This document shows positions 5,976 to 51,689 of a DNA stretch of 64,000 nt, piece by piece. Origin of the DNA: an uncultured Nitrosomonas sp. GTDB lineage: Bacteria; Pseudomonadota; Gammaproteobacteria; Burkholderiales; Nitrosomonadaceae. The stretch covers positions 2,775 to 66,774 of the forward strand of contig NZ_CADEGP010000001.1 of NCBI RefSeq assembly GCF_902826915.1, given 5' to 3'. The translations under genes were made by a program, and so were the position numbers. The notes below the pieces were generated by a model. The model searched no databases, had not been told where the DNA came from, and was given only the letters and a program-made list of their open reading frames with translations. The first letter of the stretch is position 1. Every line of letters starts with the position of its first letter.

Positions 5976-5995
5976 TGCGGCAATTTGTCGCATTG
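5976..5995 (+). repeat. Copy E of the 20-nt near-palindromic intergenic motif (TGCGGCAATTTGTCGCATTG)
   Basis: Read directly from the sequence. It matches five other copies in the window. It lies 424 nt upstream of the 6419 CDS in the same orientation. Confidence 0.9.
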
Positions 5996-6418: not shown

Positions 6419-8296
6419 ATGACCACTAATCAAACCATAATTCTTATTATTCTAGTGTTCACAATGGCGATGTTCTTATGGGGGCGTTGGCGTCACGATA
6501 TGGTTGCAGTGGCCTCGTTGCTTGCTTGTGTGCTTACCGGATTGATTGCGGCGGCTGATGCTTTTGCTGGTTTCGGCCACCCAGCGGTGATCAGTGTGGC
6601 TTGTATTCTGATACTGAGCCGGAGTTTGCAAACCTCGGGGGCGGTCAATGTGCTAGTCCGCCATACTTTGCCGAAAAATGCTGGTCCGACGTTGAATTTG
6701 GTGGCTCTGGTTGGATTGGGCGCAGCACTTTCCGGCTTCATGAATAATGTTGGAGCAATGGCGCTTTTGATGCCGGTGGCGATTCAGTTGGCTGAGCGTC
6801 TTGAACTGCCTCCCGGACGAATATTAATGCCATTGGCTTTTGGTACCATTCTCGGCGGCATGACGACTATGATTGGAACACCACCCAACTTGATTGTTTC
6901 AGGCTTTCGTGCCCAGAGTGGCGCTGGCAGCTTTGGTATGTTTGATTTTACGCCTGTTGGTTTGGCTGTTGCCTTGAGTGGAGTAGTTTTTATAGCAGTT
7001 GTCGGCTGGCGACTGGTTCCCATGCGTAAACAAACTGGCATGGAAGGTTTTGAGACAGGTGCTTACATCACTGAAGTGCGTGTGTCGACCGATAGTAAAG
7101 CTGCCGGGATGGTCATGCACGAGCTTGAAACTATACTTGATGGACATGCCGCACAAGTCGTAGGTTTAGTGCGAAATGAAGCACATTTCACTGCGCTTCG
7201 AGCTGGGTTCAAGATATTGACTAATGATATCCTGATAATTGAAGCTGAAGCTGAGGTTCTGGCGCACATTCTATCGGATCTTGGGCTAAGTCTGGAGGAA
7301 GCGGATACTCAACACAACGATAGTGAAAAGGATCAAAGTGAGGCGGATCATACTCCGCGGCATGATGACATTAAAGTGAGTGACAAAAAGGCTGATGCTT
7401 TAGAATCAGATGAAGCAGAAGAAGAATCTTCGCAAAGTGATGAGATCATTTTGATGGAGTTTGTGGTTCGCCCGGAATCAACGATCTCAGGTCGATCGGC
7501 TGCGGACATGCGGCTACGCACCCGCTATGGGCTCAATCTACTGGCAGTATCACGCGAAGGTTCACGTGCTAAGACGCGGTTGAGAACGCTGAAAATTCAA
7601 CCTGGCGACTTGTTGTTGCTTCAGGGTACCGCAGAAGTATTAGCTGAGTTTGCAGCTGATTTCGGTTGTGTGCCATTAGCCAGTCGCGAGCTACATATTC
7701 CGGATAAGCGCAAAGCACTAATTGCCGGCGGTATCATGGCTGCCGCAGTCGGTGGCGCAGCTTTTGGTTTGTTGCCGGCAGCCATTTCATTTGCTCTCGG
7801 CGTGTTGGGCGTAATGGTTTTTCACATCATCGCGCCCCGAGCGGTTTATGACGCAATTGATTGGCCGGTAATCGTCTTGCTCGGAGCACTTATTCCCGTG
7901 GCCGGCGTATTAGAATCTACCGGAATGGCAGATCTGGTGGCACGATTCATGATCGACAATATTGTGCAAGGTCATGCCATTATGGGACTTGCACTCATTC
8001 TGATTATTACCATGTTTCTATCCGATTTAATGAATAATGCAGCCACTGCAGCCGTGATGTGTCCAATCGCTATTGGTACCGCGACTGCGCTTGGAGTGAA
8101 TGCCGACTCTTTTCTAATGGCGGTGGCGATCGGTGCTTCTTGTGCTTTCCTGACACCAATTGGGCATCAGAATAATACCCTCATACTGGGCCCTGGTGGT
8201 TTTCGCTTTGGTGACTACTGGCAACTTGGATTGCCGCTCGAGATATTAGTAATCGTTGTCAGTATTCCGCTGCTATTGATCTTTTGGCCACTCTAA
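6419..8296 (+). CDS. SLC13/DASS-type anion permease with two internal TrkA-C (RCK-C) domains and an acidic linker
   Basis: 625 aa. Multi-TM halves flank a soluble middle region with two TrkA-C-like repeats, separated by a D/E/S-rich stretch (EEADTQHNDSEKDQSEADH...EAEEESSQSDE). It is paralogous to 8333..10678 and 35896..37671. Confidence 0.8.
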   Translation: MTTNQTIILIILVFTMAMFLWGRWRHDMVAVASLLACVLTGLIAAADAFAGFGHPAVISVACILILSRSLQTSGAVNVLVRHTLPKNAGPTLNLVALVGLGAALSGFMNNVGAMALLMPVAIQLAERLELPPGRILMPLAFGTILGGMTTMIGTPPNLIVSGFRAQSGAGSFGMFDFTPVGLAVALSGVVFIAVVGWRLVPMRKQTGMEGFETGAYITEVRVSTDSKAAGMVMHELETILDGHAAQVVGLVRNEAHFTALRAGFKILTNDILIIEAEAEVLAHILSDLGLSLEEADTQHNDSEKDQSEADHTPRHDDIKVSDKKADALESDEAEEESSQSDEIILMEFVVRPESTISGRSAADMRLRTRYGLNLLAVSREGSRAKTRLRTLKIQPGDLLLLQGTAEVLAEFAADFGCVPLASRELHIPDKRKALIAGGIMAAAVGGAAFGLLPAAISFALGVLGVMVFHIIAPRAVYDAIDWPVIVLLGALIPVAGVLESTGMADLVARFMIDNIVQGHAIMGLALILIITMFLSDLMNNAATAAVMCPIAIGTATALGVNADSFLMAVAIGASCAFLTPIGHQNNTLILGPGGFRFGDYWQLGLPLEILVIVVSIPLLLIFWPL

Positions 8297-8332: not shown

Positions 8333-10678
8333 ATGACTTTTGAGATCGTGTTGGTACTTGGGATTCTCTTTTCGTGCCTCATTCTTTTTGTCACTGAATG
8401 GGTGCGCATGGATGTGGTGGCGCTGATGGTGTTGTCAAGCTTGGCGATTTTTGGACTGGTATCGCCAGCGGAGGCAGTTAGCGGCTTTAGTAATCCGGCG
8501 GTGATCACGGTATGGGCGATGTACATTATGAGCGAAGGACTCACTCGTGCCGGTATTGCCGATCAAATCGGCGGTCTGGTGATGCGCGTAAGCGGACGAA
8601 GCGAAGTACGTATCATTACAATTTTTATGATCGCAGCAGGCGTACTATCAGCTTTTATGAATAATATTGCTGTTGCGGTATTAATGCTGCCGGTGGTAAT
8701 CGAGGTGGCTCGACGTTCCGCAATTGCACCGTCTCGAGTGCTGATGCCGTTGGCTTACGGCACATTGCTCGGTGGGCTCATGACGCTCATCGGAACTCCT
8801 CCGAATTTGCTCGTGAGTAGTGCATTGCGCGAGGCTGGAGAAGTAGAATTTGGTTTCTTCGATTTTGCCTATATCGGGGTGCCAATCTTGTTGATTGGTA
8901 CCGCTTTTGTCGCACTATTGGGTCGTCACTTGCTACCGACAACTGATACCACGAAGTTAATTGAAAAGAAACGAAACTTACAGGCTGAATACGGATTGCA
9001 GGAGCGTAACTTTGTTTTGCAGGTTCCCACCGATGCTCTGCTGATTGGCAAGACGATCGCTGACTCCGGTATGACCTGGGCTGCAGGTTTGGTGATCATT
9101 GCACTAACTCGCGCAGGCCGGACAGAAGTGCTGCCCAGGGCAAATACTGTGTTGCAAGCGGGTGATATTTTGCTTACCCAAGGTCGTTTTGATCACTTCG
9201 AGCGATTACGCAGTTGGAGTACGCTCAAGATTGAGCGCGAGGCACCAATCCTGCATGAGAGATTGTTGGTCGACAACAAGCTTGCCGAATTGACGGTGGC
9301 CGACAATGCTTCCCTGATTGGTAATCCGCTGCGCCACCGCGCATTTCGCGAGCGTTTTGGAGTCAATATATTGGCAATTCGACGTGAAGGATTATTGCGT
9401 CGTACACGGCTAGCGGAGATGGTGATCGCTACAGACGATCGTTTATTGGTGCAGGGTACGCCACAGGCGCTGGCAGCATTACATGATGTAGCGGAATTTT
9501 CCACTGTGGGGCCGGTTACGCCCGAGGAAATGCGGGAAAGCTATCAGCTCGACGCACGCTTGTTCGTATTGCATGTGCCGAACGATACGCCATTGTCTGG
9601 CTCTACATTGGCCGAGAATCAGTTAGGGGATGCTTTTGATTTTCGTTTGCTCGGCATTTTTCGAGAGGGTGAGGTGTTGGAGTCGCCGGTCTCAGAAGAG
9701 ATTATTCAAGCGGGAGATTTATTACTGATCCAGGGGCGGGAAAGTGATTTGGATATGTTGCGCGGTTTGCAGCAACTGGAGCGGCTGGACGATGTATCTC
9801 CTTATCTGGATGTATTCAAGCAAGGTGAGCTCGATTTAGTCGAAGCAACGTTATATCCACATAGTAAATTTGTCGGCCGCCGCGTGGAAGATCTGCAGTT
9901 CGATGAACATTATCAGGTGGAATTGGTTGCCATTTGGCGTGCAGGAAAACCGCACCGATCAAGCCTGCGTGCAATGACACTGCAATCGGGTGATGGGCTG
10001 CTCTTTGTAGGGCCGAAGGTACGTTTGGCCGGACTTAATGACATTGAAGATTTATTGATTCTTAATCCGATACAAGTCAAACCAATCAACACACATAAGG
10101 CACCGCTTGCCGGTGCGCTGATGTTGCTAGTCGTTGCTGCGGTAATTATGGAATTACTGCCCATTTCGATTGCAGCTATTGCGGGAGCCACCTTGATGGT
10201 GCTGAGCGGCTGTCTCAGCATGGAACAGGCACACCGCGCAATTGAGTGGCGATCAATCTTTCTGATCGCTGGTATGCTGCCACTTGGCATTGCAATGCAA
10301 CATACCGGCGCAGCCACTTTGCTAGCTCAAAACATGCTCGATCTACTAGGTCCTGGCGGGGCGTGGGTCGTTATCGCTGGGCTCTATATTGTCACTACAC
10401 TCGGCGCGCTAATCATGCCAACCGTAGCACTTGTACTCATCATGGCACCGATCGCTTTGACGCTCAGTTCAACGCTGGGTGTATCCGCGCAAACTGTTAT
10501 GATGGTGGTTGCAATTGCCGCAACCAGTCTTGCTAGCCCGGTGTCACATCCAGCCAATACCCTGGTAATGGGGCCGGGTGGATATCGATTTATCGATTAC
10601 TTGAAGCTTGGCATCCCGCTCACTATAGTTGTGTCTCTGGTTACGGTTTTTCTACTGCCAGTATTTTGGCCACTGTAG
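8333..10678 (+). CDS. SLC13/DASS-type anion permease with about four internal TrkA-C (RCK-C) domains
   Basis: 781 aa. The TM halves are the same as in the upstream paralogue (shared motifs such as GTPPNL and PxGHxxNxLVMGPGGYRF). The soluble insert is roughly twice as long. Confidence 0.8.
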   Translation: MTFEIVLVLGILFSCLILFVTEWVRMDVVALMVLSSLAIFGLVSPAEAVSGFSNPAVITVWAMYIMSEGLTRAGIADQIGGLVMRVSGRSEVRIITIFMIAAGVLSAFMNNIAVAVLMLPVVIEVARRSAIAPSRVLMPLAYGTLLGGLMTLIGTPPNLLVSSALREAGEVEFGFFDFAYIGVPILLIGTAFVALLGRHLLPTTDTTKLIEKKRNLQAEYGLQERNFVLQVPTDALLIGKTIADSGMTWAAGLVIIALTRAGRTEVLPRANTVLQAGDILLTQGRFDHFERLRSWSTLKIEREAPILHERLLVDNKLAELTVADNASLIGNPLRHRAFRERFGVNILAIRREGLLRRTRLAEMVIATDDRLLVQGTPQALAALHDVAEFSTVGPVTPEEMRESYQLDARLFVLHVPNDTPLSGSTLAENQLGDAFDFRLLGIFREGEVLESPVSEEIIQAGDLLLIQGRESDLDMLRGLQQLERLDDVSPYLDVFKQGELDLVEATLYPHSKFVGRRVEDLQFDEHYQVELVAIWRAGKPHRSSLRAMTLQSGDGLLFVGPKVRLAGLNDIEDLLILNPIQVKPINTHKAPLAGALMLLVVAAVIMELLPISIAAIAGATLMVLSGCLSMEQAHRAIEWRSIFLIAGMLPLGIAMQHTGAATLLAQNMLDLLGPGGAWVVIAGLYIVTTLGALIMPTVALVLIMAPIALTLSSTLGVSAQTVMMVVAIAATSLASPVSHPANTLVMGPGGYRFIDYLKLGIPLTIVVSLVTVFLLPVFWPL

Positions 10679-24917: not shown

Positions 24918-24937
24918 TGCGGCAATTTGCCACATTC
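24918..24937 (+). repeat. Copy D of the 20-nt motif (TGCGGCAATTTGCCACATTC)
   Basis: Read directly. It lies 254 nt upstream of the 25191 CDS in the same orientation. Confidence 0.9.
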
Positions 24938-25190
24938 CATGAATCTTGCGTATTGTGCATAATCGATAGGTTTATTCAAAAAGTTTGTAGCTCAGCGATT
25001 TAAATTAAGATAATACGTTTTCTCAGATTAACTCTGTTTCCATTTTTATTCTAAGAATAATCGTGTTACCTAGATTCTGAAAAGAATTTGAAAGATGTCA
25101 CTCAGAATTGACAGTTATTGCTTTTAACAGCAGCAAAGAGCTAAGCAATGCAGCTTAACCGCAACATACAATAAAAGTGGAGTTGTTATT

Positions 25191-25625
25191 ATGAAGAAAC
25201 AGTCGTTAAAAAAAGCTGTCGTTCTCATCGGCATCGTCATGGCCATTTGCCAGGCAGGTGTTGTTTCGTCCCATCAATTGATTAATAGCCTTACCGCAGT
25301 TGATGCTGTCGATCATTTCCTGGTTACTTGTAGTGAAGCAGATAATCATCATCTGTATGCGCAGATCGATGATCTCAGGGTGGTTGATAATAGACAATTC
25401 AATTTGCTGGTTGCCAAAGACAAGGTGGCTTCCAGTGCCACTAATCCCGATGGAGAATCAAGCCCTGTCATTCGACTGGCAGGAGGTGTAGGTGTTTATC
25501 ATGTGTACGTCAGTCAAATCGTGGGTGGTGATAAAGCAGCTAATTATCAATTAATTTTTCATTGCGAAGATGTCGATAATGCGCATTTTGAAACATCGGT
25601 GCTAACTAAAATTGACCAACCATAG
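25191..25625 (+). CDS. Small secreted protein, divergent member of the family also found at 51125 and 52048; predicted mature N-terminus is His
   Basis: 144 aa with a GGAG RBS. The signal peptide ends VVSS/HQL. It aligns by eye with 51125/52048 over AVDxxxxTC, SPxxxxxxGxGVYxxxV, and HC-x6-H-x2-TSV. Confidence 0.75.
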   Translation: MKKQSLKKAVVLIGIVMAICQAGVVSSHQLINSLTAVDAVDHFLVTCSEADNHHLYAQIDDLRVVDNRQFNLLVAKDKVASSATNPDGESSPVIRLAGGVGVYHVYVSQIVGGDKAANYQLIFHCEDVDNAHFETSVLTKIDQP

Positions 25626-25636
25626 TATGTCTGAGT

Positions 25637-26830
25637 CTATTGATTGCTGTCGTCATCGGATTGCCTGATCGGAATTAAACGAAAGCCGGTATCCATACTG
25701 TTCCAGGATAGAAAAATTTGCTTGCCGTCAGTGATCAGTGCAGGATGAGCGGACTGAGTTGCTGTTTCGGCAACTACTTGCGGTTTTGACCAGTGCAATC
25801 CACCATCTGTAGAATACATAGCTTCCACGCGGGTCTGAGTGCCGTCAAACACCTTCCATGCAAGCGCTACCTGTTTGCCCAAAGCCAGCACATCGGCTCG
25901 ACCGGGTAGTTTATCTTGATCGCCCACTTGCATTGGATTGGAGAAGGTTTTTCCTTGATCATCGGACCATGCATAAAAAATTCCGCTACGTTTTTCTCCC
26001 TGAGTAAACCAAACCATGTGATACCGTCCATCAGCGCCGATCGACAAGGCAGGTCCGTGCGCAGGACAGCCTTCAATTTCCCAGTCATCGAATGTTACTC
26101 GCCACGGTTCGCTTGTTTTTCCGTCGGGTGATAGCTTAAGTAAACCATGATCGCGGATATTTCCGGGATAGACATAACGGGCCAGCATGACCAGACTGCC
26201 ATCGACATCCTCAGCCATGGCTGTACGGCAGCAGGAGCAGATGTTTTTCGCAATGCGTTGATCCGTAGGAAGGTTAATTATTCTGCCGGTTTTTGCAGAT
26301 ACATGGTAGATCGATAGATCTCCATCGCCCTGTTTTTTGTATTCGGCCCGATCACGCACATCGTGCCAAGTAAAATGCACGCGATTGTTCGTGTCTATTA
26401 GCATCTCCGCCTGATAGTGATACCAGGTATTGGCTTCAGAACTAATTTTGACCGGTGTGCTGAACTGGGTGCCGTTGTCGGAATGGCTGAAAAAACTGGT
26501 GCTGGATTGTTTATCATCGGCAAAGTAGAGCACATACACTCTTCCTGTTTGATCAACGGCTAAGGTGGGCGGATTTTCATCCCATGCATGTATCGGCATA
26601 CCTGCCGAGTTGACGCGAACCGGTTGACTGAAAGACTGGCCAAAATCGATTGAATAATCAACAGAAATGGATTTCTGGGCAGAAAGAATGCGCCAAAGCC
26701 GCCCATCTGGCCCAAATGTCGCTGCGGTATAGATTTTTTGTTCAGGCAGTAATTTTTCGGTTTCAGCAACCAGATTATGCGATAAAGCTAGTAATAATAG
26801 AGTGCTGCAGATCAAAGCAAAATGATTCAT
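25637..26830 (-). CDS. Secreted BNR/Asp-box repeat beta-propeller (sialidase-like fold) with CxCC and GCPxHGP motifs
   Basis: 397 aa with a signal peptide. There are four Asp-box-like motifs (SIDFGQSF, SDNGTQF, SDDQGKTF, STDGGLHW). Unusual motifs are C198-x-C200-C201 and G-C255-P-A-H258-G-P. Confidence 0.7.
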   Translation of the reverse strand: MNHFALICSTLLLLALSHNLVAETEKLLPEQKIYTAATFGPDGRLWRILSAQKSISVDYSIDFGQSFSQPVRVNSAGMPIHAWDENPPTLAVDQTGRVYVLYFADDKQSSTSFFSHSDNGTQFSTPVKISSEANTWYHYQAEMLIDTNNRVHFTWHDVRDRAEYKKQGDGDLSIYHVSAKTGRIINLPTDQRIAKNICSCCRTAMAEDVDGSLVMLARYVYPGNIRDHGLLKLSPDGKTSEPWRVTFDDWEIEGCPAHGPALSIGADGRYHMVWFTQGEKRSGIFYAWSDDQGKTFSNPMQVGDQDKLPGRADVLALGKQVALAWKVFDGTQTRVEAMYSTDGGLHWSKPQVVAETATQSAHPALITDGKQIFLSWNSMDTGFRLIPIRQSDDDSNQ

Positions 26831-26987
26831 GTGAGTATATTTTGTGTAGGCGCGATTCTGAGTTAACCTCTCCTATTTGCTTGGGACAAGTATAGTAAGG
26901 GAAGTGCATCAAATTAAAGAGAGTGAGGGGGATTCCTGTTTCAATTTACACTACCTTAATAGAAAGAAACTCCGAACAGAAGCAGGT

Positions 26988-27482
26988 CTAATTGATAATT
27001 GTCTTGAGCATGGCTTCGAGCGTTTCGCGTGATACAGAACCACTGATGCCGACACGCTGGTGATCTTTGTCGAGAAAATAGGTGCGAGGGACTTCACCAT
27101 ACCATTTAGGATCAATTTCATAACGAAGTTTTTGGGAGTTGGCGTCAGCAAAGATCCAGTTATCTGCATTATTCAGTTCATTTCCAGTCAGTATAGACAG
27201 CGCTTGATTAGAAGCTGAAGCATCATCAGTTGCTAGCATGATCAGGTTAATATCCGGCATATTTTTGCGAAGCTCACTAAGTAATGGCATCTTTTTTTTG
27301 CACGAAGTGCAGTTGATAGACCAAATCATCAATACGAATGGCTTGTCGGCATATTCATTCAGTAATTGTTGATAGCTGCCAGAAGTAAAATGCTTCAAAT
27401 TAACTTGCTCAGCGCGAGCGGGGAAGGCAATGCTGCACGACAAGAATAGTAAGTAAGTAATTAGAATTTTAGGTGATTTCAT
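26988..27482 (-). CDS. Periplasmic TlpA/ResA-like thiol:disulfide oxidoreductase
   Basis: 164 aa with a signal peptide (SIAFPARA/EQ) and a thioredoxin-fold active site (WSINCTSC). Confidence 0.75.
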   Translation of the reverse strand: MKSPKILITYLLFLSCSIAFPARAEQVNLKHFTSGSYQQLLNEYADKPFVLMIWSINCTSCKKKMPLLSELRKNMPDINLIMLATDDASASNQALSILTGNELNNADNWIFADANSQKLRYEIDPKWYGEVPRTYFLDKDHQRVGISGSVSRETLEAMLKTIIN

Positions 27483-27652
27483 GATGATGCCTCTTAATGT
27501 TTGCGATATCGGGATCCCTAAGTATCAAAATTTCAGTGTGAAATTGTGTAAAACCAGATTGCTTGATCAGTGTTATTGTTTTCTGCGAATAGGGTATGAA
27601 AAACTATCCGTCAATTCTTTTATGATTATCTACAAAATTTGATTGTTTGAAC

Positions 27653-27670
27653 ATGCGACTAATTGTCGCA
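27653..27670 (-). repeat. Copy F of the 20-nt motif (minus-strand reading TGCGACAATTAGTCGCATG)
   Basis: Read directly. It lies 171 nt upstream of the minus-strand TlpA-like gene start (27482) in matching orientation. Confidence 0.85.
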
Positions 27671-27985: not shown

Positions 27986-28177
27986 TTATTTTTTCAAGGC
28001 ATCACATTGATCAAGAAATGCTTGTCGTGCAGCTTCGTCGTCCTTCAAATCAGAAAGTGAGGATTCCAATCCTTTTCCCGCGCAATTGACCGAACTTGCT
28101 TCGGGTACTCCACCGCAACCGAACAGAGCGAAACAAAGGCCAATCATACAAACGATGCTATATTTTTTAAAATTCAT
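27986..28177 (-). CDS. Small lipoprotein (63 aa)
   Basis: Lipobox LFGC after a hydrophobic N-terminus. The mature part has further Cys residues in addition to the lipobox Cys. The ORF is short, so confidence is moderate. Confidence 0.5.
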   Translation of the reverse strand: MNFKKYSIVCMIGLCFALFGCGGVPEASSVNCAGKGLESSLSDLKDDEAARQAFLDQCDALKK

Positions 28178-35623: not shown

Positions 35624-35895
35624 TAAATGTCCGTAAAGTATTTCTTGAAAAGATTAGCTTGGCAAAAGTTTTTTTAAATTGCGCCGATAAATAGCGGCTT
35701 GGATAACCAATATTGATTGCCAATTTTAGTAAGTTTAGCCGATTCGCGATTAGCTTCCCAGTATAAAAACAAGATATCCAGATTACTTGGCGGTACGGCA
35801 TATAAATTGTGGTCATATCTTTATAATAATTGATTATTTATGTTCATACTATCAACTGCTGTATATTTCACACTTTTGTTTGGGATGTAAAACAT

Positions 35896-37671
35896 ATGGA
35901 ATGGCAAGGCTGGTTTACATTGGGTTTATGTGTTGCGGTGCTGGCGACACTTATTTCTACTCGAATTGGTCCTCATTTGGTCATGATTGGAGCGCTGACG
36001 ATATTGAGTGCAACTGGGATCTTGAGTAGTTCCGATGCATTGAGCGGTTTTAGTAATTCAGGTTTGATTACAGTTGCGGGTATGTTTGTGGTGGCGGCTG
36101 GTATGCATGCTTCCGGTGCGATTGATCTGCTGGTCAACACATTATTGGGCAGACCTGCGACTTCGCGCGCAGCGCTAAATCGCATGTTTTGGCCAGTTGC
36201 ATTTTTGAGCAGCTTTCTTAACAATACGCCAGTGGTAGCCACGATGATTCCAGCAATTTATAGTTGGTCGCGGAAAATCGGAATTTCACCTTCCAAGCTT
36301 ATGATCCCGCTGAGTTATGCGGCAATTCTAGGCGGCACGGTGACGCTGATTGGAACGAGTACCAATTTGATTGTCAATGGTCAATATCAGGCACTGACCG
36401 GTGGACCGGGCTTTTCTTTATTTTCGATCACTGCGGTTGGAGTACCGGTTGCGATAGTGGGTTTTCTATACATGTGGTTATTTTTCCCTAAATTGTTGCC
36501 GGACCGCACGCAAGGCCAGGCTTTCTCCAATTTGCGTGAATTTACATTGGAAGTGTCCATTGCGCCGGACGGTCCCTTAGTCGGGAAAACAATCGAGCAG
36601 GCTGGGCTAAGACATTTGCAACGGGTTTATTTAATTGAAATTGAGCGTAACGGCATTATATTGACCGTTGTAACCGCGGATGAAGTGCTTCAAGGTGGGG
36701 ATCGTTTGGTATTTGCTGGCGACACCGACGCAATTTCTGATTTGCTCCGTATTAAGGGAATTGTGCCATCTGCCGAGGAAGGGCAAACACAAACATTTGC
36801 TGAGCGGCATCCTGAAAGGCGTCTGGTCGAAGCAGTAGTGTCACCGCATTGCACTGCGGTGGGATATGCCATCCGCGACGCGCGTTTTCGTGCCCGTTAT
36901 GGTGCTGCTGTTTTGGCTGTAGCAAGACATGGCGAGCGTATCAAAGGTAATCTCGGAAGCATTACTCTGCAAGCGGGGGATACGTTACTGCTAGAAGCAA
37001 GACCAGCCTTTGTCACTCGGCAGCGCTACAACAAGGATTTTTTGCTGATTAATGACCTGAACACAGAAGCGCCACGCCATGAACGAGCTTATGTTGCCTG
37101 GATGATTTTATTGGGCGTGATCACAGCTGCTAGCTTCGAAGTGATTACCATGCTTAATGCCGCGCTGATTGGCGGCGGATTGATGATTCTTGCCGGTTGC
37201 TGTACTGCCAATCAAGCTGAGAGAAGTCTTGATTTAAAGGTCATCATTACGATCGCAGCATCATTTTCACTGGGCATGGCGTTGGAAAAAACCGGCGTTG
37301 CTAAATTTCTTGCTGAGAATATTGTTGATCTAAGTGGAGGTACACCGTGGCTGCTGCTGATTCTGACGTACATAACCATTTCATTGTTGACCGAAGTCAT
37401 TACCAATAATGCTGCAGCGCTTTTAATGCTGCCGATTGTGTTGGAGATCACCGAAAAAGCCGATTTGAACAATACACCCTTTGTATTTGCCATCATGATG
37501 GCAGCTTCTGCTAGCTTTGCAACGCCTCTAGGATACCAAACCAATATGATGGTCTATGGGCCTGGCGAATATCGTTTTACTGATTTTCTCAAAGCTGGCG
37601 TTCCGATGAATATTGTCGCAGGTATTGTCACTATCACGGTTTTATTGATTGGGTGGCCGTTGACTAAGTGA
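35896..37671 (+). CDS. SLC13/DASS-type anion permease with two TrkA-C domains (third paralogue)
   Basis: Starts at the ATG of MEWQGWF. The architecture matches 6419..8296. The upstream in-frame extension from 35830 is not supported. Confidence 0.8.
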   Translation: MEWQGWFTLGLCVAVLATLISTRIGPHLVMIGALTILSATGILSSSDALSGFSNSGLITVAGMFVVAAGMHASGAIDLLVNTLLGRPATSRAALNRMFWPVAFLSSFLNNTPVVATMIPAIYSWSRKIGISPSKLMIPLSYAAILGGTVTLIGTSTNLIVNGQYQALTGGPGFSLFSITAVGVPVAIVGFLYMWLFFPKLLPDRTQGQAFSNLREFTLEVSIAPDGPLVGKTIEQAGLRHLQRVYLIEIERNGIILTVVTADEVLQGGDRLVFAGDTDAISDLLRIKGIVPSAEEGQTQTFAERHPERRLVEAVVSPHCTAVGYAIRDARFRARYGAAVLAVARHGERIKGNLGSITLQAGDTLLLEARPAFVTRQRYNKDFLLINDLNTEAPRHERAYVAWMILLGVITAASFEVITMLNAALIGGGLMILAGCCTANQAERSLDLKVIITIAASFSLGMALEKTGVAKFLAENIVDLSGGTPWLLLILTYITISLLTEVITNNAAALLMLPIVLEITEKADLNNTPFVFAIMMAASASFATPLGYQTNMMVYGPGEYRFTDFLKAGVPMNIVAGIVTITVLLIGWPLTK

Positions 37672-39931: not shown

Positions 39932-40056
39932 ATACTAAAAGGGCATTGGTGGTTTTAGTAGATATTTGAGAGTTATTTTGAAGCCAATCCAGTCGCTGAG
40001 ATTTCTCAGAAATATTCGTGCTAGTAACGTATTGTCATAAAAAAGGAGAAATGATT

Positions 40057-40401
40057 ATGAAATCTATATCAACTGCAATCGTAGCAGGAACATTCGCACT
40101 TTTCATTGGTACCCAGGCTTGGGCATCCGATGCCGGACATACCTCGGAAGCCATGGAGCATGCAGGAAAAGCTCAGGCCCATGGTGAAATGGGGCATGCT
40201 AAAGAATCACTTTCGCATGCGAAGGAAAGTTTAGCGCATGCAAAAGAAGCTGGTAAGGAGCATGCTGAAGCCCATAAGCATATGGATGAAGCGATCAAGC
40301 ATCTTGAGGAAGCAATTAAGCATGCTGAAATGGGACATGGCGAGGAGTCTGCTAAACATGCTGAAGAAGCTATGAAACATATGCGTCAATCCGGTCATTA
40401 A
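40057..40401 (+). CDS. smbP: Small metal-binding protein SmbP-like (histidine-rich, repeated helical motif)
   Basis: The signal peptide ends AWA/SDAGH. The mature ~90 aa are built of H/E/A/K-rich repeats (AKESLSHAKESLAHAKEAGKEHAEAHKHMDEAIKHLEEAIKHAE). It resembles Nitrosomonas europaea SmbP as I recall it. AGGAGA RBS, with the start at 40057. Confidence 0.8.
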   Translation: MKSISTAIVAGTFALFIGTQAWASDAGHTSEAMEHAGKAQAHGEMGHAKESLSHAKESLAHAKEAGKEHAEAHKHMDEAIKHLEEAIKHAEMGHGEESAKHAEEAMKHMRQSGH

Positions 40402-46003: not shown

Positions 46004-47551
46004 TTACCGGATAAAGTGATGGGTGCCGATTGAATCAACAATCATCCGTCGATAGTGCTCTGATTTACGGATTTGTAACAGTTCGAGATTGCTTAGGTTG
46101 TCGGTCAGGATTGTTCCATGCGCTGGGTCAATAGTTAATAATCTCTGATTTAACCAGGTGCGGTTGGAGAAAGGTATTGAATCATCGCCCAAATTGATGA
46201 CATGATTTGTGGCGAGAAAAATGAAATCATTAAAATCTGCACCCGGATCGGAAATGAATACGTGTTGATGCGGGAAGACTTGCGCCAATGTTTTCGAAAC
46301 AGAGGCCAGCGCCGCATTTTGACCATTATCCAGGAAAGAAACAAAATTCAGAGCAAGAATTCCGTGCCTTGAAAGCAAGCCGTGCAATTGCGCTAATGCT
46401 TCAACGGTCAATAAATGGGTTGGTTCGGTGCCGCCAGTGAATACATCCAGAATGATTAAATCATAAGGGCCTTTGAGCTGACGAATCTCATAACGCGCAT
46501 CGCCGATGATTCTACGACCTGTTGGCATAAAGCCGAAATATTCGTTGGCCGCTTCGGCAACGGCAGGGTCAATTTCCAGCGTGTCCGTTACAATTCCTGC
46601 CTTATTCAAAGTCATAACCATATGTCCGGCGCCCTGGCCAATTAATAAGGCTTTCTCCATATTCGGTACGAGAAAAGGGATTTGCCCCACGATTTTCTGG
46701 TAGGTGAGGAGATTTTCTCCATGGCTGATACTGGCTGCGCCAATGGTGGAAGCGTCTGAAGTGAGCAAACGAATATTTTCCTTGGGCTTGTCAATTACGC
46801 GAACCCAACCGTATAAGCTTTCTCGTTCGAATCGGGTTTGGAAGGTATCACTGAATTCTGCTTGCCCTGAGCTGACGATTTGTGGAAACAAGCCAAATCC
46901 AATCACCAATAATAGGGTTGCCGGTACGATGACCGTTGTGGATTTTAGATATTTTCGTTCTATCCATGCCACTGCCATCGCTAATACCAATAGTGCAATC
47001 CCCAGGCCCACAAAAATTTCACGAGAGCCGATCAAAGGAAATAAATAAAAACCGAGAAATAGCGTGCCGATGACGCTGCCGACGGTACTGACCGCATAAA
47101 TAGAGCCCGTGCTGGCGCCCACATTAGCCAGTGCGGAAGTGGATAATTTAACTGCAAAAGGCCCAACCATGCCCAGCATAATCAAGCTGGGCGAGAATAG
47201 GATCAGTGTGCTGATGAAGCTACCCAGACGCAAACCCAGCGGATCTGTGGCCAGTAAAACCGGCCCTGCCAGCCAGGGAATGATGAGTGTTAATAGTCCT
47301 GCCGTTGCGATAATGAGAGATAATCCAGATCGTGCCCGGTCGGCCCAGATTCCGCCCAGATAATAGCCAAGCGCCAGTGCGATCAGTGTGACAGCAATCA
47401 GTGAAGTCCAGACATACAGGCTGGCGCCATAGAAAGGCGCGATCAGCCGTGTGCCCAGCAACTCAATAACCATAACCGCTGCACCGGTGAGAAATACGGT
47501 GCAGTAAAGCCAGGCTTTGTCAAAAATAGTTGAAGATGAAGGAGTGTTCAT
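46004..47551 (-). CDS. Fused polytopic membrane domain plus spermidine/spermine synthase-like methyltransferase-fold domain
   Basis: 515 aa. The N-terminal ~200 aa are multi-TM. The C-terminal part has aminopropyltransferase-like motifs (LLIGQGAGH, LEIDPAV, DLIILDVFTGG). Confidence 0.7.
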   Translation of the reverse strand: MNTPSSSTIFDKAWLYCTVFLTGAAVMVIELLGTRLIAPFYGASLYVWTSLIAVTLIALALGYYLGGIWADRARSGLSLIIATAGLLTLIIPWLAGPVLLATDPLGLRLGSFISTLILFSPSLIMLGMVGPFAVKLSTSALANVGASTGSIYAVSTVGSVIGTLFLGFYLFPLIGSREIFVGLGIALLVLAMAVAWIERKYLKSTTVIVPATLLLVIGFGLFPQIVSSGQAEFSDTFQTRFERESLYGWVRVIDKPKENIRLLTSDASTIGAASISHGENLLTYQKIVGQIPFLVPNMEKALLIGQGAGHMVMTLNKAGIVTDTLEIDPAVAEAANEYFGFMPTGRRIIGDARYEIRQLKGPYDLIILDVFTGGTEPTHLLTVEALAQLHGLLSRHGILALNFVSFLDNGQNAALASVSKTLAQVFPHQHVFISDPGADFNDFIFLATNHVINLGDDSIPFSNRTWLNQRLLTIDPAHGTILTDNLSNLELLQIRKSEHYRRMIVDSIGTHHFIR

Positions 47552-47560
47552 GGATACCTT

Positions 47561-48868
47561 TTAGTGTTTTAACTTATTTTTCTTGAAATCGTTGATGATG
47601 ATATGGCCATCGGAGATGACCAGATCGGGATATTCCAGCAATTTAAACCGTTCAAACGGATTGCCGCGGACGGCGATAATATCTGCCGGAGCATGTTTCA
47701 TCAATGTGCCGAGCAACGGATAATTCAAATGCATTCCCGCTTCGGAAGTTGCTGACCTGAATACCCGCAGCACATCTCCAAAATCAATCCCGTCCGGACT
47801 GGTTAAATTCAACATCAAAACCATTTCTTCTGCGTTGATGCCCCAGGGCACATTGTCATGGCCAATTTCAGATCCATAGATAAATTTTGATTTTGAATCT
47901 GGACTATGAGACATGATGTGCGCAAGCTTATGCGCATTGGCGTGAATGCCAGTGCAACCTGATAGGGTATCCACCGTGGTTACGAAGGTTACGTTTTGTT
48001 CTACCGCACGATGTAATAAGTCCTCCCGAATTTCTGCGCAGGGGATATGTGACCATTCATCCACATCGGCATCTAGAGCCAGCTCAACCCCGGTATTTTC
48101 TCCGACATGGGCGGCTACCTTGCGGTTCAATGCATGCGCCTTGGTCACTATCACCTTGACGATATCCAAAGAAAGTAGTGGCCATGGTGTTTGCGGAGGC
48201 TCTCCGTGACCGTGGCTTGACATCCATGGCGCACCGGCTTCGCCTCCGGGTTCCAAAGCAATTTTGATCATGCTTGAACCACCAGCCACCAAATCGATTA
48301 CGGTTTTCTCAGCTTCTTCAATGGTGGCAACCGCTACACCAATGGTACCGTATTTGTCATGACCACCAGACGTCTCGGTTCCGTGATTGCCGAAAATATT
48401 CAATGGATAACCATCTACTGCCTGAATGATAGGGCCAACGCTCAATATACGTAATGTGCCATTACCTCCCATCGGTTTCAAAAGCGGCCCGCCGGTATCA
48501 CGGACAGTTGTGATGCCATGTTTCAATACTTTATCGCTAGGAATTTTTTGAAAAGTAATGTGTGCATGAGATTCAATAAAGCCTGGCAGAATAGTCGCAT
48601 CACCTAATTTCATTTTCCTGCTGCATAATTCACCCAGTTGGTTTGGGTCACCGACTTGAACAATCTTATTGCCTTTAATCAAAACGGCTGCATTTTCGTG
48701 CAGGTCGAAGCCGTCAAAAACGCGATCGGCACTTAACACATAACATTGATTATTTGCAGCAGATTCTGCTGAGTCATTCTGTGCAAAAACATGCAGGCTG
48801 AGCGAGGCTGTCAAAGCCAAGATAATGAGTTGTATGATGGTTTTTAATTGATCAGTTCTGATTTTCAT
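47561..48868 (-). CDS. Secreted metal-dependent amidohydrolase family protein
   Basis: 435 aa with a signal peptide (SLSLHVFA/QN) and the HxH motif (GFIESHAHI). It lies 9 nt upstream of 46004..47551, so they probably form an operon. Confidence 0.75.
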   Translation of the reverse strand: MKIRTDQLKTIIQLIILALTASLSLHVFAQNDSAESAANNQCYVLSADRVFDGFDLHENAAVLIKGNKIVQVGDPNQLGELCSRKMKLGDATILPGFIESHAHITFQKIPSDKVLKHGITTVRDTGGPLLKPMGGNGTLRILSVGPIIQAVDGYPLNIFGNHGTETSGGHDKYGTIGVAVATIEEAEKTVIDLVAGGSSMIKIALEPGGEAGAPWMSSHGHGEPPQTPWPLLSLDIVKVIVTKAHALNRKVAAHVGENTGVELALDADVDEWSHIPCAEIREDLLHRAVEQNVTFVTTVDTLSGCTGIHANAHKLAHIMSHSPDSKSKFIYGSEIGHDNVPWGINAEEMVLMLNLTSPDGIDFGDVLRVFRSATSEAGMHLNYPLLGTLMKHAPADIIAVRGNPFERFKLLEYPDLVISDGHIIINDFKKNKLKH

Positions 48869-49032: not shown

Positions 49033-49050
49033 TGCGACAAATTGTCGCAG
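49033..49050 (-). repeat. Copy A of the 20-nt motif (minus-strand reading TGCGACAATTTGTCGCATTA)
   Basis: Read directly. It lies 165 nt upstream of the minus-strand amidohydrolase start (48868) in matching orientation. Confidence 0.9.
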
Positions 49051-49159
49051 CCGTGACAAGAAGAACCTGAAATAATGCCGGTTAATATTTTTTTAATATA
49101 TTGTTTAATAATAGTTAATGTTCTTTTGTGAGATGCGCATTCTTGCTGTAATGCTGACC

Positions 49160-49179
49160 TGCGGCAATTTGTCACATTG
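49160..49179 (+). repeat. Copy B of the 20-nt motif (TGCGGCAATTTGTCACATTG)
   Basis: Read directly. No annotated CDS lies downstream. It is followed about 190 nt later by an intrinsic terminator. Confidence 0.9.
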
Positions 49180-49368
49180 TTTTTCTATGGTTTGATCAAT
49201 AGTATCCATTCCTGAAGAAATTGCTGTTTATCTCCTAGCGATTTTTTTAAATGATGTCTCGTTGAATAATCTCTTGTGGTGCGAGCACTTGTATCTCTGG
49301 AAGCCTATCTTCTTACTGTAAGAGGAAAAGAAGTTAAACAACCGGTGGATAATTAAGCGCAATTAATA

Positions 49369-49399
49369 CCCCGCAGCTTGCTGCGGGGTTTTTTCTTTT
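49369..49399 (+). terminator. Rho-independent terminator (CCCCGCAG-CTTG-CTGCGGGG followed by TTTTTTCTTTT) with no CDS upstream
   Basis: Perfect 8-bp GC-rich stem, tetraloop and T-run, read directly on the plus strand. Confidence 0.8.
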
Positions 49400-49417
49400 G
49401 GAGATAGACAGTTGGGG

Positions 49418-49437
49418 TGCGACAATTTGCCACATTG
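49418..49437 (+). repeat. Copy C of the 20-nt motif (TGCGACAATTTGCCACATTG)
   Basis: Read directly. It lies 185 nt upstream of the 49622 CDS in the same orientation. Confidence 0.9.
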
Positions 49438-49621: not shown

Positions 49622-50377
49622 ATGTTAACAAAACAATTTAAGTCTTTTACCCATACTGCGTTAGCGACTGCTCTGCTGTTGGGTCTCTCACAAAACGTAT
49701 TATCGCATACTCGCCTGGAAATTCCTGCAGGAACCGAAGGGGTGAGAATTACTAATAATGTGGTTATTGGCCATGGTTGCGGAGATAATACTTTTGTAAC
49801 TAAAAGTTCAATAGTTTTTCCAGATGGTGTGGATTCAATTGTCAAAGTCAATGGCGCAGTTTCATCTGACACCATTGATGTACACGTTGCAAATTGGGGT
49901 AATTTATTTCAGAAAGTGTTGGAGCCAGTTGTTTTTAAAGCAGAAGATGAGAAGACTGATGGTAGCGGTAATGTCGTAGGGTTTTATGTGAAAGATGGCA
50001 AAATGCCGAATCATTATGCAAGCTATCTTAAATTTAGAGCCGGTGCGGTTTTGTTTGAACCGACCTCCTGTGCTTCTAGCTTAAAAATTGTTATACCAAT
50101 TGCGGATATTTGCAAGCAAACACCGATATCAGGCTTTGCCGATGGGAAGCTTAATCTCTGGACACCGGCGGTAGGATCTGATTATGACGGTCCTGGATTG
50201 CATGGTTACGATTCTCCAGCAACTTACACGGTAAATCGTGATCTGGTTGTCAATCCACTACCCGGAAGTTGTTCGGCGACAGGAGATGTGGTTGATTTGG
50301 TTCCATCCGCAGCGCAGATCAACCGTGATATGCCAATCAAAAACAAGAAGGGTGTGCAGATTTGGCCAAAACCATAA
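49622..50377 (+). CDS. Secreted YcnI/DUF1775-like protein with a C-terminal extension; predicted mature N-terminus is His
   Basis: 251 aa with the signal peptide ending NVLS/HTRLE. Mature HTRLEIPAGTEGVRITNNVVIGHGCGDN...IVFPDGV resembles the proteobacterial DUF1775 pattern H-V-x-L-E-P...AG....F-R-V-x-HGC-x-G-S...I-P-x-GV as I remember it. Confidence 0.55.
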   Translation: MLTKQFKSFTHTALATALLLGLSQNVLSHTRLEIPAGTEGVRITNNVVIGHGCGDNTFVTKSSIVFPDGVDSIVKVNGAVSSDTIDVHVANWGNLFQKVLEPVVFKAEDEKTDGSGNVVGFYVKDGKMPNHYASYLKFRAGAVLFEPTSCASSLKIVIPIADICKQTPISGFADGKLNLWTPAVGSDYDGPGLHGYDSPATYTVNRDLVVNPLPGSCSATGDVVDLVPSAAQINRDMPIKNKKGVQIWPKP

Positions 50378-50465
50378 AATGATGGTGATGTATTAGCTTT
50401 CTGTTGTAAGGGGAGGTGAGCGGTGTGGGAGCTCTTGTTCATCTCCTAATTTTTGAGGAGCCAAG

Positions 50466-51038
50466 ATGTTGAAATTACCAAATCATAAGAGTGGCATAGC
50501 CATGCCGCTCGTTATTTCTTTTATTGTAATGGCCGGATTTGCGAATCATGTGTTTGCAGACAATGCAAAAGCGAGCTCGCCTTCCAGCTTGGATTCCATC
50601 CAGATTTATTGCATGGCGGAACAGGGCAGTGCAGCGGAGCCTGATGCTAATTTTACCGAGACTATAATCGACCTTGCGGCATCGAATGATCCGGCACAAA
50701 GAGTAAGCGCCTTGTCGCAACTGGCAGAAAAAGGATCGATTGACGCCGGCGTTGTAGAGAAAATTCTGCAAACCGCGATTCAAGATGCCGACCCGAACGT
50801 CAGAGGACAGGCAGTTTATGCCTTTGCACAGCAAGGTTGCGGTGATCTTTTTGTAGTACTTGAACAAGCTTTGCAAGACACCGAGCTTTCAGTACGGCTG
50901 ATGGCGTTGGATAGTTTGGGTGCTGATGAAAGAAGCGTAGCGCTACTTAAAGAAATCGTTGAAGACGAAGACGAAACTGAAGCTATCAAAGATCTGGCTG
51001 CGATGAAATTGGAATCTTTGAGCACAAGTAGTAATTAA
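50466..51038 (+). CDS. Periplasmic HEAT-repeat (PBS-lyase type) protein
   Basis: 190 aa with a signal-like N-terminus (ISFIVMAGFANHVFA/DN). The repeats carry the D(P/A)xxRVxAxxxL pattern (DPAQRVSALSQL, DPNVRGQAVYAF, ELSVRLMALDSL). Confidence 0.65.
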   Translation: MLKLPNHKSGIAMPLVISFIVMAGFANHVFADNAKASSPSSLDSIQIYCMAEQGSAAEPDANFTETIIDLAASNDPAQRVSALSQLAEKGSIDAGVVEKILQTAIQDADPNVRGQAVYAFAQQGCGDLFVVLEQALQDTELSVRLMALDSLGADERSVALLKEIVEDEDETEAIKDLAAMKLESLSTSSN

Positions 51039-51056
51039 GGCTTAAGGCTTAAGGCA
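51036..51056. repeat. 7-bp tandem repeat (TAAGGCT x3) starting at the HEAT-gene stop codon
   Basis: TAAGGCTTAAGGCTTAAGGCA read directly. Confidence 0.8.
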
Positions 51057-51124
51057 GTGGCATTTAATAAGCTGCTTATGCTATCGATGGAATTGTAAGA
51101 TTATCTTATTTAAGAGGGTTGAAG

Positions 51125-51586
51125 ATGAAATTCTCAAATTTGAAGGGAATATTTGTTTCGGTTTTTGGATTAATGGCGTTATATGCAGGCACTGTTTCGG
51201 CGCATAACCAAGCGGGCAGCTTTACCACCGGCTTAGCGGCTGCGGTTGACTTTTATCAGGCCACTTGTTTTGACGATGGAAGTGGTGCGCCGTCCTATCT
51301 CGAAGCGCAAGTCAAAGATATGACAGCCAGCACCGCCAAAGCCAGCATACTCGTGCATAAAGGAACCAGTTGCACCACCAATAAGTGCGCGCAATTTAGT
51401 GTCGACACTACGGATAGCAACACCACCTACAGTCCTTTAGTGACCGTAAAGCAAGGTGCCGGGGTATATAGCATATTCGTGATGCATACGGCAGCAGGCA
51501 CGGATAGTTATGATGTGGCGCTCCATTGTAAAACCGCAGCCGGTGTACATACGGGTACCAGTGTCGTATCAAGACAGCAGCAATGA
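51125..51586 (+). CDS. Small secreted protein, family member 1 (predicted mature N-terminus His; 4 Cys; C-terminal HC-x6-H)
   Basis: AAGAGGG RBS 7 nt before the ATG. The signal peptide ends TVSA/HNQAGSF. It has a close paralogue at 52048 and a distant one at 25191. Confidence 0.8.
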   Translation: MKFSNLKGIFVSVFGLMALYAGTVSAHNQAGSFTTGLAAAVDFYQATCFDDGSGAPSYLEAQVKDMTASTAKASILVHKGTSCTTNKCAQFSVDTTDSNTTYSPLVTVKQGAGVYSIFVMHTAAGTDSYDVALHCKTAAGVHTGTSVVSRQQQ

Positions 51587-51689
51587 TGCGTATCAGTTTC
51601 AATCGAATGGTTGTGCGTTTTTGAAAATAAGGGCGTTATCGGGTTTGTGCTGCAGATACTCAATCCTAACCACAAACAAAACAGACGGT

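Follow-up and report, generated by a model that had tools for sequence, protein, structure and literature searches.

A secreted thioredoxin and a cysteine-bearing beta-propeller paired under a RegA/PrrA-type box in Nitrosomonas: a possible envelope module for metal handling

A 64,000-nucleotide (nt) stretch of DNA from an uncultured Nitrosomonas sp. (contig NZ_CADEGP010000001.1, positions 2,775 to 66,774; the whole stretch is hereafter called the window) carries three genes for secreted proteins, namely a small beta-sandwich protein, a BNR/Asp-box beta-propeller and a thioredoxin-fold protein, bracketed by two copies of a palindromic motif. This locus raises the question of whether the three genes form one periplasmic unit and whether that unit handles a metal, as had been proposed in an earlier reading made from the letters of the DNA alone (the sequence-only reading). 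The three open reading frames (ORFs), the two motif copies and the Cys/His motifs that it had described were all found, with C198-S-C200-C201 and G-C255-P-A-H258-G-P present in the propeller and WSINCTSC in the thioredoxin. The observation itself is confirmed, and its interpretation is partly supported. The features of the locus are as follows.

24918 to 24934 (no strand assigned): RegA/PrrA-type box, TGCGGCAATTTGCCACA, with one mismatch each to the PrrA and the RegA consensus
25191 to 25625 (+): gene for the small secreted beta-sandwich protein, 144 amino acids (aa)
25637 to 26830 (-): gene for the secreted BNR/Asp-box beta-propeller, 397 aa
26988 to 27482 (-): gene for the secreted thioredoxin-fold protein, 164 aa
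27654 to 27670 (no strand assigned): RegA/PrrA-type box, TGCGACAATTAGTCGCA in the minus-strand reading, 171 nt upstream of the thioredoxin gene start

The nearest relatives of the locus are Nitrosomonas metagenome-assembled genomes at 94 to 95% identity. A gap of 157 nt separates the thioredoxin gene from the propeller gene that follows it, and the two genes are probably co-transcribed. The small-protein and propeller genes converge (window positions 25623 to 25639), with stop codons 11 nt apart and no terminator-like hairpin between them, and their transcripts probably overlap at the 3' ends. For all proteins, signal-peptide cleavage sites were judged by the -3/-1 rule, according to which the thioredoxin signal peptide would end at ARA/EQ.

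To place the locus in a wider context, we scanned one genome per species for the propeller, which yielded at least 598 propeller loci, and counted gene neighborhoods in 80 related loci (1.08 Mb, referred to by L numbers); 63 of these had enough flanking sequence for pairing to be scored, and 69 operons were used for the operator counts. A thioredoxin gene was adjacent to the propeller gene and on the same strand in 43 of the 80 loci (37 of the 63 with enough flank), lying upstream of the propeller gene in Nitrosomonas and downstream of it everywhere else. At one locus (L065), the two proteins are fused in frame, and propeller-thioredoxin fusions of 509 to 647 aa account for 19 of the 150 best family representatives; the C-terminal domain of these fusions carries W[SG]xxCxxC and GE[LM]PR[ST]Y. 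Such fusions are strong evidence for a functional pair, and together with the adjacency of the separate genes they support the thioredoxin as a dedicated partner that forms a functional unit with the propeller. The conserved core of the locus is thus, on solid evidence, a pair of genes. The idea of a module holds for this pair, which recurs, but the three genes do not co-occur outside Nitrosomonas, and a three-gene unit is not supported. The small protein, which had been counted as part of the module, was found at only 7 loci, all of the Nitrosomonas type and all with its gene converging on that of the propeller; a collection of 5.8 billion sequences yielded only 23 clusters of it. Judged by this distribution, it is Nitrosomonas-specific.

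What kind of protein is the propeller? We found 266 homologues, and those that bear a name are annotated as "sialidase family protein" or "exo-alpha-sialidase." A hidden Markov model search of 1.84 billion representatives returned 867 propeller clusters at E<=1e-30, counted at 50% identity. The propeller scores 33.0 bits against Pfam BNR_2, just above the gathering score of 31.4, and has four Asp-boxes (S-x-D-x-G-x-T-W) at residues 60-67, 115-123, 289-296, and 340-347. An AlphaFold 2 (AF2) model (pLDDT 90.4, pTM 0.87) looks seven-bladed by DSSP strand count, and its best Foldseek matches in the PDB are seven-bladed PLL lectins (TM 0.62), followed by sialidases and polysaccharide lyases; over all matches, TM-scores span 0.45 to 0.62 at 10 to 16% identity. 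In a profile search of PDB sequences, matches were confined to the Asp-box stretches (258-379 or 57-128, E 3e-5 or worse). For the sialidase catalytic set (RIP-motif Arg triad, Tyr/Glu nucleophile pair, and acid/base Asp), the invariant residues R47, R202, R226, and Y286 would be candidate counterparts at most. The propeller shares Asp-box repeats and an all-beta propeller fold with sialidases and other BNR proteins but differs from them in that the similarity is limited to the Asp-boxes, in its seven counted blades with PLL lectins as the best match, and in its CxCC/CPxH cluster, thioredoxin partner, and outer-membrane-import neighbors. As far as its sequence tells, it is a BNR protein by its repeats only, and the "sialidase" label is probably a mislabel.

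The Cys/His residues singled out by the sequence-only reading proved to be conserved. Across 32 sequences of 39 to 79% identity, C198, C200, C201, and C255 were invariant, and H258, H156, and H228 were each at least 90% conserved; other invariant positions include R47, D58, W155, D157, R159, R202, R218, R226, D227, D248, W250, H271, Y286, and D329. The motifs read C198-x-C200-C201-R and C255-P-x-H258-G-P in the family, and among the near-full-length proteins in the best 150 representatives, CxCC[RG] was kept in 110 of 122 and CPx[HQ]G in 114 of 122. Judged by the order of DSSP strands in the AF2 model and by the usual topology of propellers, CSCC (198-201) would come ahead of strand A in blade 4, and C255-P-x-H258 would do the same in blade 5. 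Both motifs are thereby predicted to sit in the D-to-A loops of these adjacent blades, on the propeller face where active sites normally lie. At least three His residues stand just before blade 1 in 37 of the best 150 representatives, and many mature chains of the wider family would begin with H-x-H or HMHM. For the propeller in the window, an alternative signal-peptide cleavage exposing an N-terminal His had also been suggested; this is not supported for the subfamily because H19 is replaced by E, A, or G in the nearest orthologues and the A/E cleavage site is kept.

The thioredoxin partner carries the active site W-S-I-N-C-T-S-C (family consensus WS[ILV]xCxxC), and its orthologues keep the WSINCTSC region as well as GEVPRTYF. 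Its Pfam matches, to Thioredoxin_8, AhpC-TSA, and Thioredoxin (E 2e-5 to 9e-5), each narrowly miss the gathering score. The arrangement resembles TlpA-ScoI/CoxB of Bradyrhizobium and ResA/CcmG, in which a secreted or anchored CxxC thioredoxin-fold protein is likewise paired with a Cys-rich client. The usual active site of TlpA/ResA/CcmG-type reductases is WxxWCxPC, whereas the thioredoxin described here has WSxxCxxC; moreover, it is often fused to its client, and that client is a beta-propeller of about 400 aa instead of a Sco or CuA domain. TlpA-type reductases keep the metal-ligand Cys of a periplasmic client reduced before metallation, and in copper sites the Cys ligands are likewise reduced by periplasmic thioredoxins ahead of metallation (PMC13038864). 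We found no dsbD/ccdA gene beside the module.

The motif flanking the locus is an 8-1-8 palindrome, TGCGACAA-T-TTGTCGCA, in which only a weak 3' TT flank is asymmetric. Searching the window with TGCGRCAATTWGYCRCA and allowing up to three mismatches, we identified six sites, at 5976, 24918, 27654, 49033, 49160, and 49418. The 13 strand-matches obtained at this threshold compare with 2.9 expected, and none of 100 shuffles reached 13. The sites lie 165 to 275 nt upstream of a gene start, except for the site at 5976, which does so at about 430 nt. Both copies reported to flank the locus are therefore present, but their convergent, inward-facing orientation carries little meaning because the motif is nearly palindromic. 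The four sites away from the locus are as follows.

5976 to 5992 (no strand assigned): sixth box, a perfect match to both the PrrA and the RegA consensus, 426 nt upstream of a CitMHS/TrkA-C transporter gene (6419 to 8296)
49033 to 49434 (no strand assigned): three boxes, at 49033, 49160, and 49418, between the amidohydrolase and MFS-spermidine-synthase genes and the divergent cluster of the 251-aa N-terminal-His protein, same putative regulon

The box at 27654 is kept in all 6 of the 6 Nitrosomonas loci that have the thioredoxin gene, and it is the likely control site of the thioredoxin-propeller operon. The box at 24918 stands between the starts of the small-protein gene, 256 nt away, and a divergent cbpA-like gene (start at 24688), 230 nt away, and is equally well placed for the latter; upstream of the small-protein gene, it is kept only in the closest relative (L002). 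Across the 1.08 Mb of the 80 loci, the motif occurs 49 times at up to two mismatches, compared to 0 to 3 times in shuffled sequence, and it stands at the 5' end of 28 of the 69 orthologous operons. Motif-bearing operons comprise all testable loci of Nitrosomonas, Nitrosospira, and Nitrotoga, most of those of Gallionellaceae and Muproteobacteria, and several of gammaproteobacteria. The target of the box at 5976 is uncertain, and we found no ORF and no known RNA between it and the first CitMHS/TrkA-C gene. The window has three such transporter genes of DASS-like type (6419 to 8296, 8333 to 10678, and 35830 to 37671).

Which regulator would read this operator? The published consensus sequences are SSGNVRDNHYSNCSS for RegA, YSCGGC(N5)GWCRMA for PrrA, and GNGRCRTTNNGNCGC for RegR (quoted in PMC5506826), and the six window sites show 0 to 2 mismatches to PrrA, 0 to 1 to RegA, and 1 to 2 to RegR. 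Perfect PrrA sites are those at 5976 and 49160, and perfect RegA sites are those at 5976 and 49033. We also followed the exact 17-mer through a metagenome collection, setting aside phage and chance matches. It was located just upstream of genes of the 251-aa N-terminal-His family (5 contigs), TonB receptors (7 contigs), PepSY_TM proteins (3), and an outer-membrane barrel (2), as well as upstream of propeller and/or thioredoxin genes (L081, L099, L108, and L150), of genes for a HEAT-repeat protein and a fused MFS/spermidine synthase, and of a PCuAC gene in L140 (PF04314, E 4e-28). One motif-adjacent receptor without a propeller beside it (L166) best matches the TonB-copper type, scoring 181 bits where the cut-off is 472. 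In L126, 46 nt separate the motif from a gene for a RegB/PrrB/ActS-family kinase (NF033792, E 4e-34), which is followed by a gene for a 179-aa receiver/Fis-HTH (HTH_8) regulator carrying "NMHRRTLQR"; on its other side, the motif is 64 nt from PepSY_TM and PCuAC genes (E 7e-39). Candidatus Nitrotoga CP45, in which the motif stands upstream of a barrel-propeller operon (L066), is reported to encode ActS/PrrB/RegB and ActR (PMC8415719).

Based on the fit to all three consensus sequences, the regBA-like operon next to the motif in L126, and strain CP45, we assigned the motif to a regulator of the RegA/PrrA/RoxR type. RegA-type control of the two-gene core is thereby predicted on solid grounds, and such a regulator presumably also acts in Nitrosomonas itself. 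The motif differs from the sites of the known RegB/RegA systems (PrrB/PrrA, RegS/RegR, ActS/ActR, RoxS/RoxR) in being a 17-bp palindrome much sharper than the degenerate alphaproteobacterial sites, and we found no published RegA regulon with a propeller-thioredoxin pair or with N-terminal-His proteins. RegB/RegA systems govern respiration, and known RegA-type regulons include the cbb3 oxidase, senC, and copCAB (PMC4064962, PMC9147068): RegA, which binds copper, activates the promoter of the cbb3 oxidase, the gene for the Sco-type copper chaperone SenC is transcribed together with regBA (PMC9147068), and RegR controls copCAB (PMC4064962). Literature searches with the motif strings gave no relevant context, and a search combining RoxSR with copper starvation found nothing.

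Other explanations of the motif were considered and set aside. A sigma-54 promoter or enhancer does not fit, since the GG-to-GC spacing is 9 instead of 10, several sites lack the GG, and there is no sigma-54 promoter downstream; none of the known Fur, Zur, CusR, IscR, NsrR, and LacI-type boxes fits the motif. No transcription factor recurs in the 80 neighborhoods, and the only regulators found in the window were HrcA, PhoBR, and a protein recognized as CbpM-like by eye. Many matches to the exact 17-mer in the metagenomes are due to chance or to phage: it stands in marine phage-like contigs (several among L082-L186) beside genes that look terminase-like or otherwise phage-like by eye, and these occurrences are probably coincidental and unrelated to the regulon.

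The range of hosts bears on what the module may do. A first list of matches had suggested a link to methanotrophs and ammonia oxidizers only, that is, to organisms with copper monooxygenases, and propeller hosts do include Nitrosomonas, Nitrosospira, and many Methylococcales. The genome scan added Candidatus Nitrotoga, Gallionellaceae, Sulfuricella, Thioploca, Muproteobacteria, and Chromatiales, so the propeller family is not specific to copper-monooxygenase organisms, and we rejected the narrower link.

Gene neighborhoods at these loci point to envelope metal handling, and this part of the sequence-only reading gained from the channels and receptors encoded upstream of the propeller, from PCuAC, PepSY_TM, and a TonB-copper-like receptor under the same operator elsewhere, and from the His/Met-rich N-termini. 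In 38 loci, a His-rich putative outer-membrane barrel of about 340 aa with a C-terminal Phe is encoded immediately upstream of the propeller on the same strand. This barrel, seen in L015-L066 and others (for example, L066 8582-9610), accompanies most non-Nitrosomonas loci; its mature chain begins ADHGSMGFG and ends ...FVFVF, it has no Pfam or NCBIfam match, and the window does not encode it. The neighborhood of the propeller gene includes a gene for a TonB-dependent receptor in about 18 loci, directly upstream in most cases, and in several loci TonB, ExbB, and ExbD genes, recognized by eye from their sequences, follow downstream.

The second group of boxes in the window adjoins a gene cluster spanning 49622 to 52509 (+), some of whose products are related to the small protein or share its N-terminal His.

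49622 to 50377 (+): 251-aa secreted N-terminal-His protein with an HGC motif, same putative regulon
50466 to 51038 (+): HEAT-repeat protein, same putative regulon
51119 to 51586 and 52045 to 52509 (+): two tandem paralogues of the small protein, same putative regulon

The small protein had been credited with an N-terminal His, and this was borne out: H28 directly follows the predicted -3/-1 signal-peptidase site, after a small -1 residue (SS/H, LS/H, LA/H, or SA/H), and is invariant in 19 sequences. In 17 Nitrosomonas-type orthologues (A2), C47, H54, H124, C125, E126, D127, and H132 are invariant as well, and H28, C47, H124, C125, and H132 remain so when the two window paralogues are added (A3). 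These paralogues, downstream of the genes for the 251-aa and HEAT-repeat proteins, share 27% identity with the small protein (E 1e-13), the same SA/H start, and the same Cys pair. The 144-aa protein is thus a Nitrosomonas-specific accessory from the same family as the paralogues in the second cluster. Its AF2 model (pLDDT 78) has a generic Ig-like fold, Foldseek returned only Ig-like sandwiches at TM <0.45, no Pfam or NCBIfam family matched, and a profile search of the PDB was empty. Proteins of the 251-aa family share an invariant His at the N-terminus (H29), the motif H51-G-C53, and three more invariant Cys, and the family has no Pfam, NCBIfam, or PDB match. Its homologues occur in L003-L006, L113, L147, L159, L161, and L177; those of other Nitrosomonas genomes (L003-L006) lie 3 to 5 kb from the propeller gene, often by TonB receptors, and small proteins like the paralogues follow the 251-aa homologue in L159 and L113. 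In starting with an invariant His, carrying further invariant His residues, and occurring in copper-demanding nitrifiers, the small protein, its paralogues, and the 251-aa protein resemble histidine-brace proteins (CopC, YcnI, PmoD-like, and SmbP-type). They differ in that neither sequence nor fold comparison links them to CopC, YcnI, or PCuAC, and any metal binding by them is putative.

Two further observations concern the three-box region. Divergent from it are two genes (window 46004 to 48868, minus strand), one for an Xaa-Pro-dipeptidase-like secreted amidohydrolase and the other for a membrane protein in which MFS and spermidine synthase are fused; in L113 the motif directly adjoins this MFS/spermidine-synthase gene, and in L147 it is close by. 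About 200 nt beyond the box at 49160 comes a clean hairpin with a U-run, cccgcagcttgctgcggggtttttt, at about 49372 to 49400 (region 49160 to 49402, plus strand). The interval contains no convincing ORF, the region as a whole has a fold z-score of -1.9, and there is no Rfam match; the unit may be a RegA-box-driven small RNA or leader.

We propose the following model. A two-gene operon under a RegA/PrrA/RoxR-type box would give rise to a secreted CxxC thioredoxin and a secreted propeller. The thioredoxin would keep the propeller cysteines reduced in the oxidizing periplasm and would presumably be recharged by a DsbD/CcdA-type membrane reductase, and the reduced propeller thiols would bind or process a metal, most likely copper. 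In most other lineages, the metal would enter via the upstream-encoded outer-membrane barrel or TonB-dependent receptor. A RegB/RegA-type system would sense a respiratory or copper shortfall and switch on the module together with other envelope copper-handling genes, such as those for N-terminal-His proteins in the window and, in other organisms, for PepSY_TM, PCuAC, and TonB receptors. The case for a copper-handling module draws on the CxCC/CPxH cluster, the dedicated thioredoxin, the His/Met-rich N-termini, and the PCuAC and N-terminal-His proteins under the same operator. For the whole reading, a RegA-controlled envelope module whose thioredoxin keeps a Cys/His metal site of the propeller reduced, with copper as the likely metal, we see roughly equal chances of being right or wrong, and the assignment to copper taken by itself could go either way. 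The data show the pairing and the fusions, the conserved residues, the conserved operator with its fit to the RegA-family consensus, and the gene neighborhoods; the direction of electron flow, the binding of a metal, the identity of that metal, and the regulator at work in Nitrosomonas are elements that we infer. We entertain only tentatively, and with more doubt than confidence, the bolder version in which the propeller would be a new class of periplasmic copper protein with a Cu(I)-thiolate or mixed Cys/His site, possibly multinuclear, serviced by its own thioredoxin and placed between outer-membrane entry and the cuproenzymes (heme-copper oxidases and, in nitrifiers and methanotrophs, ammonia or particulate methane monooxygenase, AMO/pMMO), with RegB/RegA as the copper or respiration sensor that switches on copper acquisition in chemolithoautotrophs.

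A related architecture is known. In beta- and gammaproteobacteria, heme-copper oxidases obtain imported copper through operons that encode a TonB receptor, PepSY_TM, PCuAC, and ScoI (PMC12914433, PMC13038864). The CrtA (BfrG)-CrpH (PepSY_TM)-PCuAC/ScoI operons combine an outer-membrane TonB receptor with periplasmic and membrane accessories that supply copper to respiratory oxidases, and in other contigs PepSY_TM and PCuAC share the operator of the propeller operon. For these operons, however, the two papers describe no propeller or thioredoxin, and regulation of copper import in Bordetella is by a copper-sensing upstream ORF and not by a RegA box (PMC12914433). In the literature searched, we found no paper describing the propeller family or the propeller-thioredoxin pair, and queries for the propeller or "sialidase" together with PepSY, copper, or thioredoxin returned nothing relevant.

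Several findings weigh against the proposed model. The motif is missing from 41 of the 69 operons, mostly those of Methylococcales, and 26 of the 63 loci with enough flank have no adjacent thioredoxin gene. The thioredoxin, which the sequence-only reading had called TlpA-like, is an exported thioredoxin fold with a CxxC and a cis-Pro loop, but its scores fall far short of the curated cut-offs (in parentheses) for ResA, at 25 bits (170), DsbE, at 20.9 (123), TlpA, at 20 (230), and MauD, at 16.2 (189), and it is for this reason best regarded as a separate thioredoxin-fold family. The four invariant Cys of the propeller could simply form two structural disulfides. At the outer membrane, the module in the window has no channel or receptor gene of its own, and the receptors upstream of the propeller elsewhere are not of the CrtA or OprC type: the nearest PDB relatives of the cl3 receptor are YncD/PqqU (E 1e-24), and the cl12 receptor has no PDB relative, so that receptor type is uninformative. 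As for the regulator, no RegA-type gene was found in the window or in the Nitrosomonas loci examined, whole Nitrosomonas genomes lying outside the search. RegA of Methylomonas DH-1 is a direct activator of feo and also influences siderophore and TonB genes (PMC13274454), and the receptor next to the motif in L182 is genuinely of the siderophore type.

The first alternative is that the propeller is a periplasmic enzyme with catalytic vicinal Cys (a thiol-dependent reductase, lyase, or hydrolase) that acts on a compound imported via the outer-membrane channel and is recycled by the thioredoxin at each turnover, as in peroxiredoxin and Msr. The invariant residues R47, WHDxRD 155-160, R202, R218, RDH 226-228, D248, Y286, and D329 would lie on the predicted active-site face, and so many Arg, Asp, His, Tyr, and Trp residues there suggest a substrate pocket and not a metal site only. 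Fusion to a thioredoxin domain is typical of redox-enzyme/reductant pairs, and the fold family is enzymatic (sialidases and the glycoside hydrolase and polysaccharide lyase propellers). However, no known enzyme family matches the propeller, the PDB and Pfam matches covering its Asp-boxes only; the regulon partners are metal-handling proteins and not catabolic enzymes; and the His/Met-rich tails point to metal. We therefore regard an enzymatic role as rather unlikely.

A second alternative keeps the same architecture and changes the cargo to iron or another scarce nutrient: the propeller and thioredoxin would act on a TonB-imported iron chelate, for example, in reductive release, and RegA would couple iron demand to redox state. 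Direct activation of feo by RegA in Methylomonas DH-1, where TonB, siderophore-receptor, PepSY, and hemin genes are RegA-dependent (PMC13274454), makes iron a live alternative; the RegA transcriptome supplements of that study contain no "sialidase" entry. For the receptors encoded upstream of the propeller, siderophore and heme types are the best-scoring families, below cut-off, and the receptor in L182 is of the true siderophore type. PepSY_TM proteins include ferric-siderophore reductases. Set against this, the copper chaperone PCuAC is co-transcribed under the motif in L126 and L140, and none of the 80 loci has a Fur box or a feo, siderophore, or heme gene beside the propeller gene. Thiol-rich sites such as CxCC/CPxH and N-termini of the H-x-H or HMHM kind are more typical of copper than of iron. 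On balance, we consider iron an unlikely cargo.

A reading of the propeller as a plain BNR protein that acts on or binds carbohydrates, in line with its public label and with its four Cys in structural disulfides and the thioredoxin as a folding helper (isomerase), would agree with the BNR_2 score, the four Asp-boxes, and the lectins and sialidases among the best Foldseek matches but is quite improbable given TM-scores of only about 0.6 at 10 to 16% identity, hosts that are chemolithoautotrophs and methanotrophs without an obvious sialoglycan substrate, operon partners that serve import (outer-membrane channels and TonB systems) and stand under the box of a redox regulator, and vicinal Cys-Cys plus CxC, an unusual pattern for structural disulfides.

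A few neighboring genes in the window complete the description. Upstream of the box at 27654 is an ORF for a 63-aa lipoprotein-like product (27986 to 28177, minus strand), conserved only in L001 and L002 and with a weak resemblance to TrbK/EexN entry-exclusion proteins (E 8e-4, below cut-off). A gene for an SmbP-family small metal-binding protein (40018 to 40401, plus strand; PF16785, E 2e-26) adjoins the ferrochelatase gene and has no RegA-type box near it; SmbP was first described in Nitrosomonas europaea. No Rfam family matched anywhere in the window.

The locus thus exemplifies a known kind of system, a periplasmic reductase-client pair within a metal-acquisition-type regulon; what is new is the uncharacterized client family and the unreported regulatory link. 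The acquisition and periplasmic routing of copper in nitrifiers, methanotrophs, and other chemolithotrophs are largely unknown, and most of these organisms lack methanobactin. The propeller family is large, with its 867 clusters, and publicly carries the label "sialidase," and its dedicated thioredoxin, recurrent fusions, import neighbors, and sharply defined operator make it directly testable. Should the copper reading fail, the family would still be a conserved redox-linked envelope system; if it is true, the module would be a new component of cuproenzyme biogenesis and would define a RegA regulon in ammonia and nitrite oxidizers.

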